A DNA stretch of 38,270 bases from Escherichia phage BUCT618. The stretch lies in the sequence record OM735461.1; one strand, 5' to 3'. The notes under the pieces were generated by a model. It did not search any database, was not told the origin of the DNA, and saw only the letters and a list, made by a program, of their open reading frames with translations. A program made the translations under genes and the position numbers. The number at the start of each line of letters is the position of its first letter. Position 1 is the stretch's first letter. Positions 20 to 38,258 of the stretch are shown here, piece by piece.

Positions 20-2389
20 TTACCATGCTGAAAGGTTGTAGCCGGTGACCAGGTTGTCAGAGATGGCGTCTAGCGTAGGGTCAACCTGGTCGTCGTGCTT
101 TCCGTTAGGGAATACGGAGAATTCACCGATGTAGGCAGGCATCCACGGAGCATCCTTCGGCAGGTGAACAAGGCCCGCCTCAATCTGCGGCAGAACATCC
201 AGGGCGCGGGTGAATTTATCCACCGAGCGCTGAATCGGGATTACCGGCACACCCTCCATTTTCAGCGTCTGAATCAGGCCGGTTCCGCTGGCCTTATCCT
301 CAATCTTCATTCCGCGAACAACGCCACGGTTAATGGGTGATTTGTGCAAATCCCAGAATGCGCGAGCCTGTTTTATGAGGTCCGGCGCCTCCCATTTACC
401 ACGAATCTGGTCGAGCAGATAGGCGTGGCCGTTTTTGAATCCCCAGCACTGGAATACAGACCAGTCGTTGTGCTCTTTTGTTTTGAGAGCGGTATCTGCG
501 TATATAACGCGATAATCCCACTCCGGGTGCACAAAGCTGTTGTCGTACCACTGCCACCAGCTGTCTTTGAAAAGGCCGCCGCCTTTCGGTGCAGGGCGCT
601 GCATGTACTGACCAGCGAATACGTAAGGGTTACTGGCCTCCATCTCTGCCAGCTTCTCACGTGAGTGCTTAAAGGGCCACAAGGCGGTGTCATCTGGGTT
701 TACGGCAGGGATACTAAGTACATGCCACTGCTCGCCATTTCCGCCAGCCTGTAGCCATCCTGCAAGGTCTTCCTCGTGGAGTCTCTGCATGATAACGATA
801 ATTGGCGTATCAGGGCTGTTCAGGCGTGATTCCATCGTGGTCTGGAACCAGTCAATGACATTCTGCCGCATGGTGTCAGAATTGGCCTCGCTTGCCTTAT
901 GCGGGTCATCAATTATGATACAGTTAGATACAACGGCACCTGTTTGTGATAATATGAAGTTGTTGTTATCTTCAACCCCTAAACAATAGGTTTCATCAAC
1001 ATGACCGATATACTCAACGAAACATGGCTGACCATCCCCAACACCAATGGGCTTTACGAGGTTTCCGATGCTGGAAATGTCAGAAGGACACGTCCCATCC
1101 GAGCGCTTAAGCCTTCTGTTGACTCCAAAGGATACTTGAGAGTCAACCTTTCCGTTGGCGGTAAGGTCACCTGCAAATACATCGCTCACCTTGTCGCTGA
1201 GAATTTTATAGGCGAAAGGCCCCATAAGAATGAGGTTAGGCACCTGGACGGGAACCCCATGAATAACACCCTTAGCAATCTCGCGTATGGCACTAAGTCC
1301 GACAACATGCAGGACGCTTTGCGGCATGGAACATTCCCCGTGCTCGAAAGAAGACCAGGAGCAGTCCTCGACAGAGTAAAGGTTGTTGAAATATTCCAGA
1401 GCGCCGATGATGCTAAAACTCTCGCTGCCAGGTACGGAGTTAGCGTCGGGGTTATCAGGCAGATCAAACTCAGACAGACATGGCGTAGCGTCACGAATGG
1501 ATTGCCTGATGCTCGGTGGAATGCAAAGCCAAAGCACTCGAAGGAAGTGATAAAAATCGCCATCGACCGGCGCTACAGCAGGGAAGAGGCTTGCAGACTC
1601 ACCGGACTTTCTTTGCACCAGATTAAGAGGCTTCGCAAGATGAATGGCGGAGACCCATCCGGCATCGGTTAATATTTCATGATCAGGAGTGCACTCAAAT
1701 GAAGACCCATCATCAAAGTGCACTCTTATAATGTCATTGCCAGGGTTTACCCACTTGTGAGTGATCCGCTTAACTTCAGCAACCTGATTATTCTCATTGA
1801 ATGAGTTTACCTCCATGACACCGCTGTGGATTATGTCATAGATGGATAGCTCTCCGTCAGGAGTGGAAATAATCTGGCTAGCTGGGAAGCAACCGCCGAA
1901 GCCTTCACGCAGTTTACCTGCGCCATACCCTGTGATAGTCCCGTCCGAACCGGTGGCATAGACGCAGCCGCCGGTTTTGGTGCGCCACTCGTCTTTAGCC
2001 TTAGCGTCCGGCATCATGCCGATGTCGCCGAATACGGCACGGTACTCTTCAGACATGGCAATGGCGCGGGCCTGGTAGGTGTTATTTGCTGCAAGGCGCT
2101 TGGAGTAGCTGGCGTGGATAAATTCGCAGTCAGGATAGTTCCCGATAGCCCAGGCCATGAAGTTGACCACAGCAAGCTCGGTCTTTGAGTAGCGAGGGGG
2201 GATATTGATAATCAGGCGTTTGTACTGTCCGATAAAGCACCGCTCGAGCGCCTCGCAGATTTTCGCATGATGCCAGTTCTCCACAAAGTCAAAGCCCTTG
2301 CGGGCCTTGAACATGTATTTGGAAAACTCAAGCAGGTCACATCGCAGGGTAGCGATGTCGTCGGCGGAAAGTTTAATCTCTTGAGCCAT
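20..2389 (-). CDS. terL: Terminase large subunit, interrupted in frame by an intein (extein about 466 aa)
   Basis: 789-aa ORF. N-extein has Walker A-like IPPRYSKT and ends GAGKLREGFGG; C-extein starts CIIIDDPHKA (Walker B-like) and carries QYMQRP and acidic nuclease-type residues. Lies immediately downstream of terS with a 17-nt overlap. Confidence 0.85.
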   Translation of the reverse strand: MAQEIKLSADDIATLRCDLLEFSKYMFKARKGFDFVENWHHAKICEALERCFIGQYKRLIINIPPRYSKTELAVVNFMAWAIGNYPDCEFIHASYSKRLAANNTYQARAIAMSEEYRAVFGDIGMMPDAKAKDEWRTKTGGCVYATGSDGTITGYGAGKLREGFGGCFPASQIISTPDGELSIYDIIHSGVMEVNSFNENNQVAEVKRITHKWVNPGNDIIRVHFDDGSSFECTPDHEILTDAGWVSAIHLAKPLNLVQRKSGESASLFPAVAPVDGDFYHFLRVLWLCIPPSIRQSIRDATPCLSEFDLPDNPDANSVPGSESFSIIGALEYFNNLYSVEDCSWSSFEHGECSMPQSVLHVVGLSAIREIAKGVIHGVPVQVPNLILMGPFAYKILSDKVSDVFAGDLTANGKVDSQVSFGVNRRLKRSDGTCPSDISSIGNLVKPIGVGDGQPCFVEYIGHVDETYCLGVEDNNNFILSQTGAVVSNCIIIDDPHKASEANSDTMRQNVIDWFQTTMESRLNSPDTPIIVIMQRLHEEDLAGWLQAGGNGEQWHVLSIPAVNPDDTALWPFKHSREKLAEMEASNPYVFAGQYMQRPAPKGGGLFKDSWWQWYDNSFVHPEWDYRVIYADTALKTKEHNDWSVFQCWGFKNGHAYLLDQIRGKWEAPDLIKQARAFWDLHKSPINRGVVRGMKIEDKASGTGLIQTLKMEGVPVIPIQRSVDKFTRALDVLPQIEAGLVHLPKDAPWMPAYIGEFSVFPNGKHDDQVDPTLDAISDNLVTGYNLSAW
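923..1891 (-). mobile_element. Intein within terL (residues C167 to N489, 323 aa)
   Basis: N-terminal Hint blocks CFPASQIISTPDGELSIYDI and ECTPDHEILTDAGW (TxxH); C-terminal blocks ETYCLGVEDNNNFILSQTGAVVSN followed by +1 Cys. The central ~210 residues are low complexity with no endonuclease motif in this frame. Confidence 0.7.
1001..1672 (+). CDS. HNH homing endonuclease (NUMOD4-like N-terminus, HNH_3-like core, C-terminal helix-turn-helix repeats), encoded antisense inside the terL intein
   Basis: 223-aa ORF with ETWLTIPNTNGLYEVSDAGNVRR, KGYLRVNLSVGGK, HLVAENFIGERPHKNEVRHLDGNPMNNTLSNLAYGTKSDN, then two HTH-like segments. No strong Shine-Dalgarno upstream. Confidence 0.8.
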   Translation: MTDILNETWLTIPNTNGLYEVSDAGNVRRTRPIRALKPSVDSKGYLRVNLSVGGKVTCKYIAHLVAENFIGERPHKNEVRHLDGNPMNNTLSNLAYGTKSDNMQDALRHGTFPVLERRPGAVLDRVKVVEIFQSADDAKTLAARYGVSVGVIRQIKLRQTWRSVTNGLPDARWNAKPKHSKEVIKIAIDRRYSREEACRLTGLSLHQIKRLRKMNGGDPSGIG

Positions 2390-36356: not shown

Positions 36357-36395
36357 TTGGTTAAGCGAGGTTATGACGATTATGGAGAAGTTTCG

Positions 36396-38258
36396 ATGAT
36401 TACAAATGATGGTGTTAAGTTAATTCATGGTGATTGCCTGGAGGTGCTGAAGGGAATGCCAGACAATTCCGTGGATAGCATAGTCACAGACCCGCCTTAT
36501 GGACTTTCATTCATGGGGAAGAAATGGGACTACGAAGTTCCTGACCAGGCTATCTGGGAGGAATGCCTACGCGTCCTTAAGCCTGGTGGTCATCTGCTGG
36601 CCTTTGCTGGTACACGAACGCAGCACCGCATGGCTGTTCGCATTGAGGACGCTGGGTTCGAGATACGGGACATGATTGCATGGGTATATGGCAGCGGGTT
36701 TCCTAAAAGTGCGAACGTTTCAAAGCAGATAGACCAGCAAGAAAGAAACAGATGGGTTAAAATCATCAAGGCGATTGATAAAACAAACCTTTCTGAAATG
36801 GCTGAACTATGGATAAACTCAAGAAATGCGAATGCTGCGGGGCTTTCATTCCAAAGGAATCAAACCGAAGCTGGGCTCAATACGCAAAAAAACGGTTTTG
36901 CTCACGGAAGTGTTCTGCTTCAAGTCAGTCACAAAAACTGCGATGCGCTTGCAGTCATTGCGGAACTAAATTCGACCGAAGCCCATCCCACAAGCGAGGG
37001 GAATTGCAGTTCTGCACAATCGAATGCCGAAAGCACTATCACGGCATCGAAAAGCCATGCGACCACTGCGGAAAAATCACCAGAAAACCGCGAAGCAACG
37101 CTGTGCATGGTGGATTTTTCTGCTCTACACAGTGCATGGGGCTGGCAAGGCGAAAGCAGGGCGGACAAACTCAAGGCCGTCGAAGCCCTGAAGATTTGGC
37201 TTGGAAGAAAGCCATCCTCAAGGCGGGAGGCTACAAGTGCGCTATGTGCGGCACTGACAGACGACTTGAAGCGCATCACGTTAAGCCAATCAAAGACTTT
37301 CCTGAGCTACGACACGACACGTCAAATGGCTTGTGCGTCTGCCATCAGTGCCACTATTACGGAATCCACGGCGGCAAGCCTAATTTCATTCACGGCAGGT
37401 ACTCTAAAAAGTAAGGCCATCGACAAGGCGGCTGGTGCGGAGCGCGAGGTGGTCGGCAGCTACGAGGTGACTCGCGACATGTCTGGCGGATCATGGGCGG
37501 AACTTCACGGAAAACCGAACAGCGCCAAGATGCACAACATAACCGCACCAGCCACCGACGCCGCAAAACAGTGGCAAGGCTGGGGTACAGCCCTAAAGCC
37601 AGCACTTGAACCAATCACCGTAGCACGCAAGCCGTTCAAAGGCACTGTGGCGGCTAACGTGATGGAGTGGGGAACGGGGGCGCTGAATATTGATGGGTGC
37701 AGGGTGGTGGGGGATGTTTGGACTAGAAGAACACCTTATAAAGACAACATCAAAGGCGGACAGCTTCACGCCGCAAAAAGTGAATCAACCTACGCATGCG
37801 GCCCTCAATCTTGCAATGAATTGGGGCGCTGGCCCGCGAACCTGATTCACGACGGAAGCCATGAGGTGATGTCGGAGTTTCCTGCAAATGTTGTCGCGAA
37901 CGGAGGTAGCGGCGTATTTAACCAGCACGCATGGATGCGCTACGAGACGCCGCAGAACATCAATCGCAGCAAAGGCAGCGCAGCTCGCTTCTTCTACTGC
38001 GCTAAGGCCAGCAAGAAAGACCGAGGCGAAGGTAATAACCACCCTACCGTCAAGCCAACCGACCTCATGGCGTACCTTTGCCGCCTTGTAACGCCTCCTG
38101 GTGGCGTGGTTCTCGACCCGTTCATGGGCAGCGGTAGCACCGGCAAGGCAGCCGTGCGCGAAGGCTTCCGCTTCATCGGCATTGAAATGGACGCGGAGTA
38201 CCTTGCAATCGCTGAGGCGAGAATTGCGCATGATGCAGGGAAGCAGACTGAGAAATAA
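36396..38258 (+). CDS. DNA N6-adenine / N4-cytosine methyltransferase (beta class) carrying a 630-nt in-frame insertion
   Basis: DPPY motif (SIVTDPPYG) near the N-terminus and FxGxG motif (DPFMGSGSTG) near the C-terminus. Start placed at ATG 36396 after GGAG (ORF track begins at TTG 36357). Residues about 140-350 are Ser/Thr/Ala-rich low complexity. Confidence 0.75.
   Translation: MITNDGVKLIHGDCLEVLKGMPDNSVDSIVTDPPYGLSFMGKKWDYEVPDQAIWEECLRVLKPGGHLLAFAGTRTQHRMAVRIEDAGFEIRDMIAWVYGSGFPKSANVSKQIDQQERNRWVKIIKAIDKTNLSEMAELWINSRNANAAGLSFQRNQTEAGLNTQKNGFAHGSVLLQVSHKNCDALAVIAELNSTEAHPTSEGNCSSAQSNAESTITASKSHATTAEKSPENREATLCMVDFSALHSAWGWQGESRADKLKAVEALKIWLGRKPSSRREATSALCAALTDDLKRITLSQSKTFLSYDTTRQMACASAISATITESTAASLISFTAGTLKSKAIDKAAGAEREVVGSYEVTRDMSGGSWAELHGKPNSAKMHNITAPATDAAKQWQGWGTALKPALEPITVARKPFKGTVAANVMEWGTGALNIDGCRVVGDVWTRRTPYKDNIKGGQLHAAKSESTYACGPQSCNELGRWPANLIHDGSHEVMSEFPANVVANGGSGVFNQHAWMRYETPQNINRSKGSAARFFYCAKASKKDRGEGNNHPTVKPTDLMAYLCRLVTPPGGVVLDPFMGSGSTGKAAVREGFRFIGIEMDAEYLAIAEARIAHDAGKQTEK
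36783..37412 (+). mobile_element. Putative in-frame insertion carrying the HNH gene, bounded by duplicated KAIDK codons
   Basis: AAGGCGATTGATAAA at 36768-36782 and AAGGCCATCGACAAG at 37413-37427 both encode K-A-I-D-K; the 630 nt between them is a multiple of three. Confidence 0.45.
36809..37414 (+). CDS. HNH endonuclease with three N-terminal zinc-ribbon repeats, nested in the +2 frame of the methyltransferase gene
   Basis: Three C-x2-C ... FC-x3-C repeats, then CAMCGTDRRLEAHHVKPIKDFPELRHDTSNGLCVCHQCH. Confidence 0.75.
   Translation: MDKLKKCECCGAFIPKESNRSWAQYAKKRFCSRKCSASSQSQKLRCACSHCGTKFDRSPSHKRGELQFCTIECRKHYHGIEKPCDHCGKITRKPRSNAVHGGFFCSTQCMGLARRKQGGQTQGRRSPEDLAWKKAILKAGGYKCAMCGTDRRLEAHHVKPIKDFPELRHDTSNGLCVCHQCHYYGIHGGKPNFIHGRYSKK

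Follow-up and report, generated by a model that had tools for sequence, protein, structure and literature searches.

Escherichia phage BUCT618 (sequence record OM735461.1; the window analysed here is the whole stretch of 38,270 nucleotides (nt), taken as one strand) carries an N6/N4 DNA methyltransferase gene in which 690 nt appear to be of foreign origin and encode, in a second reading frame, an endonuclease of the HNH type. We consider it highly probable that this insert is a selfish homing element, that is, that an HNH gene has invaded a conserved site of a phage methyltransferase (VSK^AIDK, the caret marking here and below the point of insertion) with the frame of the host gene kept open. 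A preliminary description of this DNA had already proposed a homing-type HNH gene, inserted so that the methyltransferase remains translatable, and this proposal agrees with the uninterrupted homologues, with the selection detected in the HNH frame and with the finding that the insert is better conserved than its host gene.

The 620-amino-acid (aa) product of the host gene is 100% identical to the NCBI entry [quoted passage not shown] of the 38,270-bp record, and the open frame itself spans 36357-38258 (633 codons) in the open reading frame (ORF) listing. Its earlier assignment, based on DPPY and FxGxG motifs, is confirmed by profile search, since the ORF matches the Pfam family N6_N4_Mtase in two separated stretches (3.3e-33; 115.9 bits, with a family cut-off of 26.7). 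The position of DPPY (residue 45) N-terminal to FMGSG (residue 589) places the enzyme in the beta class. Homologues from mycobacteriophages are about 50% identical to it. Nucleotide searches with the methyltransferase gene in phage and E. coli genome collections returned zero matches, as did a tblastn search with the HNH protein in the phage collection, these collections containing neither BUCT618 nor the HNH element; additionally, a literature search found no paper mentioning BUCT618. The coordinates of all features are collected in Table 1.

Table 1. Features of the BUCT618 window (and, in the last row, of contig L016), with their positions and strands.
Feature	Position	Strand	Remarks
Methyltransferase coding sequence (P0001, 620 aa; annotated start ATG 36396)	36396..38258	+	beta-class N6/N4, PF01555; uninterrupted through the insert
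DPPY catalytic motif (motif IV)	36489..36500	+	invariant in the homologue alignment
Inserted element, 690 nt = 230 codons, QIDQQ...TLKSK	36726..37415	+	stop-free in the methyltransferase frame; from empty-allele comparison
83-nt leader of the element, before the HNH start	36726..36808	+	two degenerate copies of the 3' flank motif SKA(I/V)DK...
First KAIDK copy	36768-36782	+	internal to the insert; contains the -35-like box
-35-like box TTGATA, inside the first KAIDK copy	36775..36780	+	TTGACA in most relatives
-10 box position, AATGGC in BUCT618 (degraded)	36797..36802	+	TATAAT in most relatives; 6 nt upstream of the HNH ATG
HNH endonuclease ORF, 201 aa, frame +2 relative to the methyltransferase	36809..37414	+	Pfam/PHROG matches
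Second KAIDK copy	37413..37427	+	K = last insert codon (or repeated AAG); AIDK = genuine host sequence 3' of the site
C-terminal part of the methyltransferase: target-recognition region and SAM-binding (S-adenosylmethionine) FxGxG motif (motif I)	37416..38258	+
FMGSG (FxGxG motif)	38121-38135	+
Terminase large-subunit gene, 789 aa (466 aa in L016)	20-2389	-
Terminase intein, 323 residues, GFGG^CFPASQ...AVVSN^CIIIDD	923-1891	-	classic ends (C...SN^C)
ORF antisense to the middle of the intein, 223 aa, NUMOD4 + HNH_3	1001-1672	+	weak HTH (helix-turn-helix) match below the Pfam cut-off
Empty methyltransferase allele on contig L016	979-2046		insertion site ...GTAAGCAAG^GCAATTGATAAG...

The limits of the insert were established from alleles that do not contain it. 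Three short homologues (P0046/L016, P0050/L019 and P0066), which are 73-85% identical to the BUCT618 protein over common columns, read ...GFPKSMDVSK^AIDKAAGAxREVVG in the homologue alignment, so that the insertion point falls on a conserved site shortly after the GFPKS motif. Related phages with an uninterrupted methyltransferase, which the preliminary description had suggested looking for, are thus available, and among them contig L016 is a syntenic relative (83-92% nucleotide identity to BUCT618) in which exactly the 690 nt are absent. The insert is flanked by ...GFPKSANVSK on the 5' side and by AIDKAAGAEREVVG on the 3' side; its read-through translation contains QIDQQERNRWVK... and, near its end, ...LISFTAGTLK, the boundary being ambiguous by 3 nt only (AAG). 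Its GC content is 0.49, against 0.55 in the flanks. The length of 630 nt given originally has therefore to be corrected, and the two KAIDK copies proposed as boundaries do exist, but the first of them is internal to the insert (where it doubles as a -35 box).

The protein hidden in the insert, described before as a 201-aa HNH protein of the +2 frame, belongs to the HNH endonuclease superfamily (PF01844 / PF13391) by profile score, by conserved residues and by fold match. It scores above the Pfam cut-offs for both HNH_2 (3.1e-5, 24.2 bits, cut-off 21) and HNH (1.8e-4, 22.0 bits, cut-off 21.4), at least six PHROG HNH endonuclease families match it (down to 2.8e-11), and its homologues number 14,249 proteins at E<1e-3 and 563 at E<1e-10. 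Three zinc ribbons of the form CxxC...(F/Y)CSxxC are followed by a C-terminal HNH domain; the zinc cysteine pairs are near-invariant and C144, C147, C178, C181, H157, N173 and H182 are conserved. The AlphaFold model of the 201 residues has a mean predicted local distance difference test (pLDDT) value of 89.9, and the top fold match of its C-terminal domain is 5H0M, the HNH endonuclease of phage GVE2 (probability 1.00, target template modelling (TM) score 0.60). The ORF starts 84 nt into the insert and its TAA stop lies within the last 4 nt of it; in most relatives the frame extends for a few codons into the host A-I/V-D-K codons before stopping.

The closest HNH relatives that are not nested in this way (P0122, P0123 and P0125; 47-50% identity) were found on L023 (1-1765), L021 (1-973) and L022 (1-1000), contigs of 1-1.8 kb that offer a limited gene context. 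They are likewise located in methyltransferase genes, but splitting them: in L021 and L023 the HNH gene lies between the two methyltransferase halves, on the strand opposite to them, the N-terminal half ending in ...GFPKSQNIGAALDSM and the C-terminal half containing ...AYLIDAEREVVG. In L023 an extra 282-codon open frame runs antisense to the HNH gene, in a frame that differs from those of both methyltransferase halves.

With the HNH protein as query, 15 loci at 58-94% identity were found in viral contigs, and a DNA pattern derived from the CVCHQCHYYGI region gave 37 further metagenome stretches; after removal of duplicates, 43 distinct copies were left. None of the 15 viral loci has either frame closed, and across the HNH ORF the methyltransferase frame is open in 42 of the 43 distinct copies (the exception being L045), the third frame holding 8-35 stops. 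When the HNH protein is recoded synonymously, the probability that the methyltransferase frame remains open is 0.2-2% per copy with the codon usage of the flanks, 0.01-0.3% under uniform codon usage and 3-17% with the element's own, already biased, usage. The non-nested relatives P0122, P0123 and P0125 provide a natural control, and in them both other frames are closed.

The distribution of the differences between copies indicates which of the two frames is constrained. In the flanks, differences at methyltransferase codon positions 1/2/3 are 0.29/0.19/0.60, the normal coding signature, and codons 1-27 of the insert, which precede the HNH start, show the same methyltransferase-frame pattern (0.375/0.281/0.536). 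In the overlap the values become 0.215/0.413/0.254 and, with methyltransferase codon position 2 being HNH codon position 3 there, this is the order of the HNH frame (position 3 > 1 > 2). By this wobble pattern the HNH protein sequence is conserved, and the methyltransferase-frame peptide varies freely but must stay open. Judged from these substitutions, the signal of purifying selection sits in the HNH frame, and the two frames are under different selection, for amino-acid sequence in the HNH frame and for mere openness in that of the methyltransferase. The BUCT618 sublineage retains the HNH wobble pattern, and its HNH amino-acid differences are about half of those in the methyltransferase frame. 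This bears on an observation named beforehand as one that would speak against an insertion, namely homologues with an equally long and conserved segment. On the surface such proteins exist, since numerous methyltransferase homologues are 570-710 aa long and align across the insert in the methyltransferase frame; nevertheless, they appear to share a "conserved" insert because the HNH-frame selection acts on the same nucleotides. The methyltransferase-frame translation of the HNH-overlap DNA gave zero matches in Pfam and PHROGs.

The histories of the insert and of its surroundings also differ. Between BUCT618 and L036, L001 and L002 the insert has 89-95% nucleotide identity and the flanks 69-78%, and the flanks nearest to those of BUCT618 (L016 and L019; 80-89%) carry no insert. 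Additionally, the element is present in methyltransferases with strongly differing downstream regions, such as the AIDKAAGAERE and AVDKLQGNERE types. By these comparisons insert and flanks have decoupled histories, and the high identity of the insert over diverged flanks implies a recent transfer. Decayed copies were found as well, all with an intact methyltransferase frame: L030 and L033 have one nonsense codon each in the HNH frame, L057 has two (plus a fourth ribbon repeat), and in L050 the first ribbon has been removed by an in-frame deletion. L045 is the reverse case: its HNH ORF is intact and the stop lies in the methyltransferase frame. A series of broken HNH genes in intact hosts is, at the level of sequence, what one would expect if a homing element invades, reaches fixation and then decays while the host gene stays under selection. 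In P0002, the closest long homologue (78% identity overall), the insert and the N-terminal flank are nearly identical to those of BUCT618 and the sequence directly after AIDKAAGA is different, which suggests a recombination or co-conversion event ending beside the insertion site.

The leader upstream of the HNH start offers a candidate route for the expression of the nuclease. Residues 1-10 of the insert mimic the ten that follow the insertion site (mean BLOSUM62 score of +10.4, versus -7.0 for control windows) and a second SKA(I/L)D(N/K) copy also lies within the leader, which looks like two decayed duplicates of the downstream half of the target, one of them recruited as a promoter element. 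Most copies have, at a fixed place in the leader, a conserved, near-consensus predicted sigma-70 promoter (TTGACA-16-TATAAT-6-ATG): at least 10 of the 12 consensus positions are matched in 25 of the 37 distinct full-length copies, and the 16-nt spacer and the 6-nt gap are invariant. A promoter scan of L009 gave 12/12; in L013, where the -35 spacing is lost, TGaTATAAT forms an extended -10. Within the leader, conservation is highest in the two hexamers (1.81 bits per position for the -35 and 1.40 for the -10, with 0.85 for the spacer), third codon positions of the methyltransferase frame included. The -35 box falls in A-L/I-D-N/K codons, a degenerate copy of the host A-I-D-K, and host sequences such as GCG ATT GAC AAG already include TTGACA. 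The HNH ATG is conserved in every copy, always within the methyltransferase-frame codons xTA TGG. Transcription beginning 7 nt past the -10 box would start on the A of the HNH AUG, from which we infer that most members of the lineage produce a leaderless HNH messenger RNA (mRNA) from this internal promoter. No consistent Shine-Dalgarno sequence lies upstream of the HNH ATG across the copies (L013 has a GGAGG, but at a distance of just 1 nt). For 20 leaders (-95 to +25), RNAalifold gave 0 predicted pairs, hence no conserved RNA structure, and a ribozyme or IRES-like (internal ribosome entry site) leader was dropped on this result.

Taken together, the element may function as follows. The insert would not be removed by RNA or protein splicing; with its multiple-of-three length and its stop-free methyltransferase frame, it would be translated through, and the host protein would be made with a 230-residue, largely unstructured-looking passenger at the start of its variable target-recognition region. 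The nuclease would be read from the +2 frame of the same DNA, in most members after transcription from the sigma-70 promoter of the 83-nt leader, starting on the A of the HNH ATG, so that the mRNA would be leaderless. Presumably the enzyme cleaves alleles without the insert, close to the insertion site, in relatives that co-infect the cell or reside in it, and repair from the filled allele would then copy the element in. Homing in the functional sense (cleavage of the empty allele plus copying) is suggested indirectly, by the decoupled histories of insert and flanks, the conserved target site and the degenerate copies.

Several observations weigh against this interpretation. The copies are phylogenetically non-independent, so that a simple product of the stop-avoidance probabilities is not justified; a ribozyme of unrecognised type could escape a search based on Rfam alone; and the low pLDDT found for the read-through segment is a weak argument for a passenger, since the genuine target-recognition region also scored low (mean pLDDT of 46.6 for the whole methyltransferase, 26-46 for residues 132-365 and 86-93 for the core, in a model built on a shallow alignment of 23 sequences, which says little about where the insert projects). 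In BUCT618, moreover, the promoter boxes agree with the consensus at 5/6 positions (-35) and 2/6 positions (-10), a promoter scan of the region gave no promoter-like site, and there is no Shine-Dalgarno sequence upstream of the HNH ATG. The degraded -10 box makes the current expression of the HNH gene in this phage uncertain, and it is conceivable, though we regard it as the less probable situation, that the BUCT618 copy is a fixed element, decaying or silenced, with an HNH ORF that is intact but unexpressed and an insert that is a tolerated passenger loop. Degraded boxes are common to its sublineage (BUCT618, L001, L002 and L036 have TTGATA plus AATGGC, AATAGC or AATAAC, with -10 boxes of 2-4/6), and decay does occur, as the nonsense-broken copies elsewhere show. 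However, substitutions within the sublineage keep the HNH wobble pattern, with HNH amino-acid changes at about half the methyltransferase-frame changes, and the recent transfer implied by the insert and flank identities also speaks against a silenced copy.

The remaining alternatives concern the nature of the insert rather than its activity. The HNH and the methyltransferase might form a restriction-modification-like or addiction module, the HNH cutting DNA that lacks the methyl mark of the host gene, instead of or besides homing; the physical nesting of the nuclease in a methyltransferase is the only support for such a module, together with the HNH relatives that also lie inside or beside methyltransferase genes (L021, L023; PMC11855218, section 3.6). 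It becomes improbable in view of the same insert occurring in methyltransferases with very different target-recognition regions, of the decoupled histories of insert and flanks and of the many empty, apparently functional, methyltransferase alleles. More improbable still is an unrecognised self-splicing intron that carries the HNH ORF and is removed from the RNA. HNH ORFs are common in phage group I introns, and the last nucleotide of the insert is a G, as an intron would have it. The 5' end of the insert resembles the 3' exon, which Arsenault et al. call intron-like (PMC11855218). However, a scan against Rfam at E<=10 gave three chance-level matches and no intron, the non-ORF sequence amounts to 83 + 1 nt only, the leader lacks conserved structure, no allowed boundary lets the 5' exon end in U, and a host frame kept open in nearly all copies against the chance expectation given above would be pointless in an insert that is spliced out; group I and group II introns were rejected on the absence of an Rfam match, of conserved leader pairs and of a U at the exon end. 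Hardly credible, finally, is that the methyltransferase-frame segment is a genuine conserved domain with the HNH as a by-product, or that the HNH is made as a -1 frameshift fusion. The long homologues do align over the insert in the methyltransferase frame, and BUCT618 has an A AAA AAC run at 36886-36892, but the overlap has the codon-position pattern of the HNH frame, and the methyltransferase-frame segment combines the absence of a family match with low pLDDT, where the HNH frame yields a confident fold and thousands of homologues. The A-run is present in few copies and not conserved, and the HNH frame has a TGA two codons before the ATG in BUCT618 and extends only 1 to 14 codons upstream of it in related copies; with no conserved slippery heptamer and a frame closed just upstream of the ATG, a programmed -1 frameshift was excluded. 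An intein, already discounted in the preliminary description, was likewise rejected: Pfam finds no intein family in the 633-aa protein or in the insert, Hint and splicing blocks are absent, and the insert reads Q...SK followed by A, versus the expected C/S/T...HN^C/S/T. A free-standing endonuclease that splits its host gene was also set aside, the host frame being continuous.

At the other end of the window, the terminase large-subunit gene contains a second hidden endonuclease. The gene carries an intein, for which contig L016 provides the empty allele (GFGG^AIIIDD), and the middle of this intein is overlapped by an antisense HNH ORF across which the terminase sense frame stays stop-free. Substitutions in the antisense region number 128/44/75 by terminase codon position and, with terminase position 1 being position 3 of the antisense HNH, these counts show the wobble of the antisense HNH frame; in the exteins and in the splicing blocks of the intein, the pattern is that of the terminase frame. 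The same layout was found in L064 and L065 (67-68% identity) and in L066 (33%), and our literature searches found no description of an antisense endonuclease gene inside an intein. L016 lacks both mobile inserts of BUCT618 (methyltransferase insert and terminase intein). With respect to gene order, the BUCT618 record is circularly permuted: the methyltransferase ends at 38258 and the terminase, its neighbour in L016, lies at the opposite end.

The usual view is that homing endonuclease genes depend on introns, inteins or intergenic niches in order to spare the gene that they invade. A fourth solution was put forward in the report on the ShiLan domain (PMC11855218): to remain inside the gene with its frame open and to place the nuclease in a different frame. 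Two actinophage cases formed the basis of that report, which left their expression unexplained and proposed a Mycobacterium-specific leaderless route (PMC11855218). What is new here is an apparently independent origin of the strategy, which uses a different site in this methyltransferase family and is carried by a phage whose host is Gram-negative and by dozens of environmental contigs. Our analysis adds the 43 copies outside actinophages, the evidence of frame-specific selection, the decay series and the promoter/leaderless-mRNA model. The occurrence in one genome of both the methyltransferase HNH and, in a different geometry, the antisense HNH of the terminase intein would suggest that gene callers systematically hide such elements. 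We see an even balance of arguments on whether translated-through homing genes, which would do without splicing because the host frame stays open, are a general and nearly overlooked class of phage mobile elements, common well beyond actinophages and hidden by gene callers; the present lineage would bring its own promoter for a leaderless mRNA, with a -35 box recruited from the duplicated target. A practical warning follows, as standard annotation gives only a long "methyltransferase" and the nuclease is missed. BUCT618 is a cultured phage of E. coli, in which homing, the transcription start, both proteins and methylation are directly testable.

Among the known systems, group I introns encode HNH endonucleases such as I-HmuI and I-TevIII, often with a promoter of their own. 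As with these introns, an HNH homing gene occupies a conserved position within a protein-coding gene of a phage; the BUCT618 element differs in having no detectable ribozyme, almost no non-ORF sequence and a maintained host frame. Free-standing homing endonuclease genes may also split their host ("genes in pieces"), as mobE does in nrdA of Aeromonas phage Aeh1. There, too, an endonuclease gene lies inside a host gene with neither intron nor intein, whereas the BUCT618 host ORF is unsplit, being one continuous frame that overlaps the nuclease gene. Inteins with a homing endonuclease are similar in sitting in frame at a conserved site of a phage gene, in being translated with the host protein and in being mobile by homing; in contrast to them, the BUCT618 insert has no Hint blocks, and its nuclease is encoded in another frame, outside the host polypeptide. 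The zinc-ribbon HNH enzymes of phages, with GVE2 HNH (PDB 5H0M) as an example, are stand-alone genes beside terminase or cos with a role in packaging (Xu et al. 2013, PMC3592412). Their CxxC...CxxC zinc site and H-N-H residues are conserved in the BUCT618 protein, whose C-terminal domain has 5H0M as its best fold match; however, its gene lies within that of a methyltransferase and has the behaviour of a mobile insert.

The closest parallel is the ShiLan domain, which interrupts methylases of the same family in mycobacteriophages with 202 stop-free codons (Arsenault, Gosselin and Gogarten 2025, Genes 16:178, PMC11855218; background in PMC9957025). Its alternative frame encodes a 195-aa HNH protein from a GTG 18 bp into the insert to a TAA within the final 4 nt; the first 11 residues of the insert are similar to the 3' flank, and neither intein nor intron features were found (PMC11855218). 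The same paper describes a second hidden-HNH case in Pacc40, speculates on leaderless translation as favoured by Mycobacterium, and reports neither a promoter nor a ribosome-binding site (PMC11855218). Inserts of this type are seen in L026 483-2291 (Mycobacterium phage Murica gp102) and L025 483-2399 (OwlsT2W gp66), where ALKPSYEPVCVAMKP and AFEPIVVARKP enclose a read-through segment rich in S, T, A and P, and where a 184-codon alternative-frame ORF carries ribbon, HNH and ribbon modules. In Murica, GGAGGA stands 3 nt before the proposed GTG start (L026 about 1098-1109) and is Shine-Dalgarno-like, where the published account gives no ribosome-binding site (PMC11855218). A different arrangement occurs in L024 480-2153 (Mycobacterium phage Taj gp79), in which a LAGLIDADG endonuclease domain (YWLAGLIDGEGCF...) follows directly after DPPYNLSFMAKTWD in the methyltransferase frame, with no evident intein blocks; this domain had been noted as a "lone" endonuclease (PMC9957025).

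The BUCT618 element and the ShiLan domain have in common the methyltransferase family of the host gene, a stop-free in-frame insert almost filled by an alternative-frame HNH gene whose stop lies in the last 4 nt, the mimicry of the 3' flank by the first ~10 residues of the insert, the absence of intein and intron signatures, and a disjunct distribution with an insert less diverged than the host gene. They differ in the site (VSK^AIDK after GFPKS in BUCT618, ALKP..EP^..EPIVVARKP in ShiLan), in the start of the nuclease (an ATG 84 nt into the insert versus a GTG at 18 nt) and in its build, with three N-terminal ribbons and a C-terminal PF01844-type HNH in BUCT618 and a ribbon, an HNH_3-like core and a ribbon in ShiLan. 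The alignment of the two HNH proteins is confined to the ribbon modules (28% over 81 aa, E 3e-5) and does not extend to the HNH cores; with a different site and unalignable cores, the BUCT618 element was rejected as a ShiLan domain proper, in the sense of a homologous element. The two also differ in range, as the BUCT618 lineage is found in an E. coli phage and at least 40 metagenome or virome contigs and the ShiLan domain in actinophages, and in the conserved sigma-70 promoter, which the BUCT618 lineage appears to carry. The hidden out-of-frame HNH design is thus already published as the ShiLan domain, and the BUCT618 lineage is an independent variant of it.

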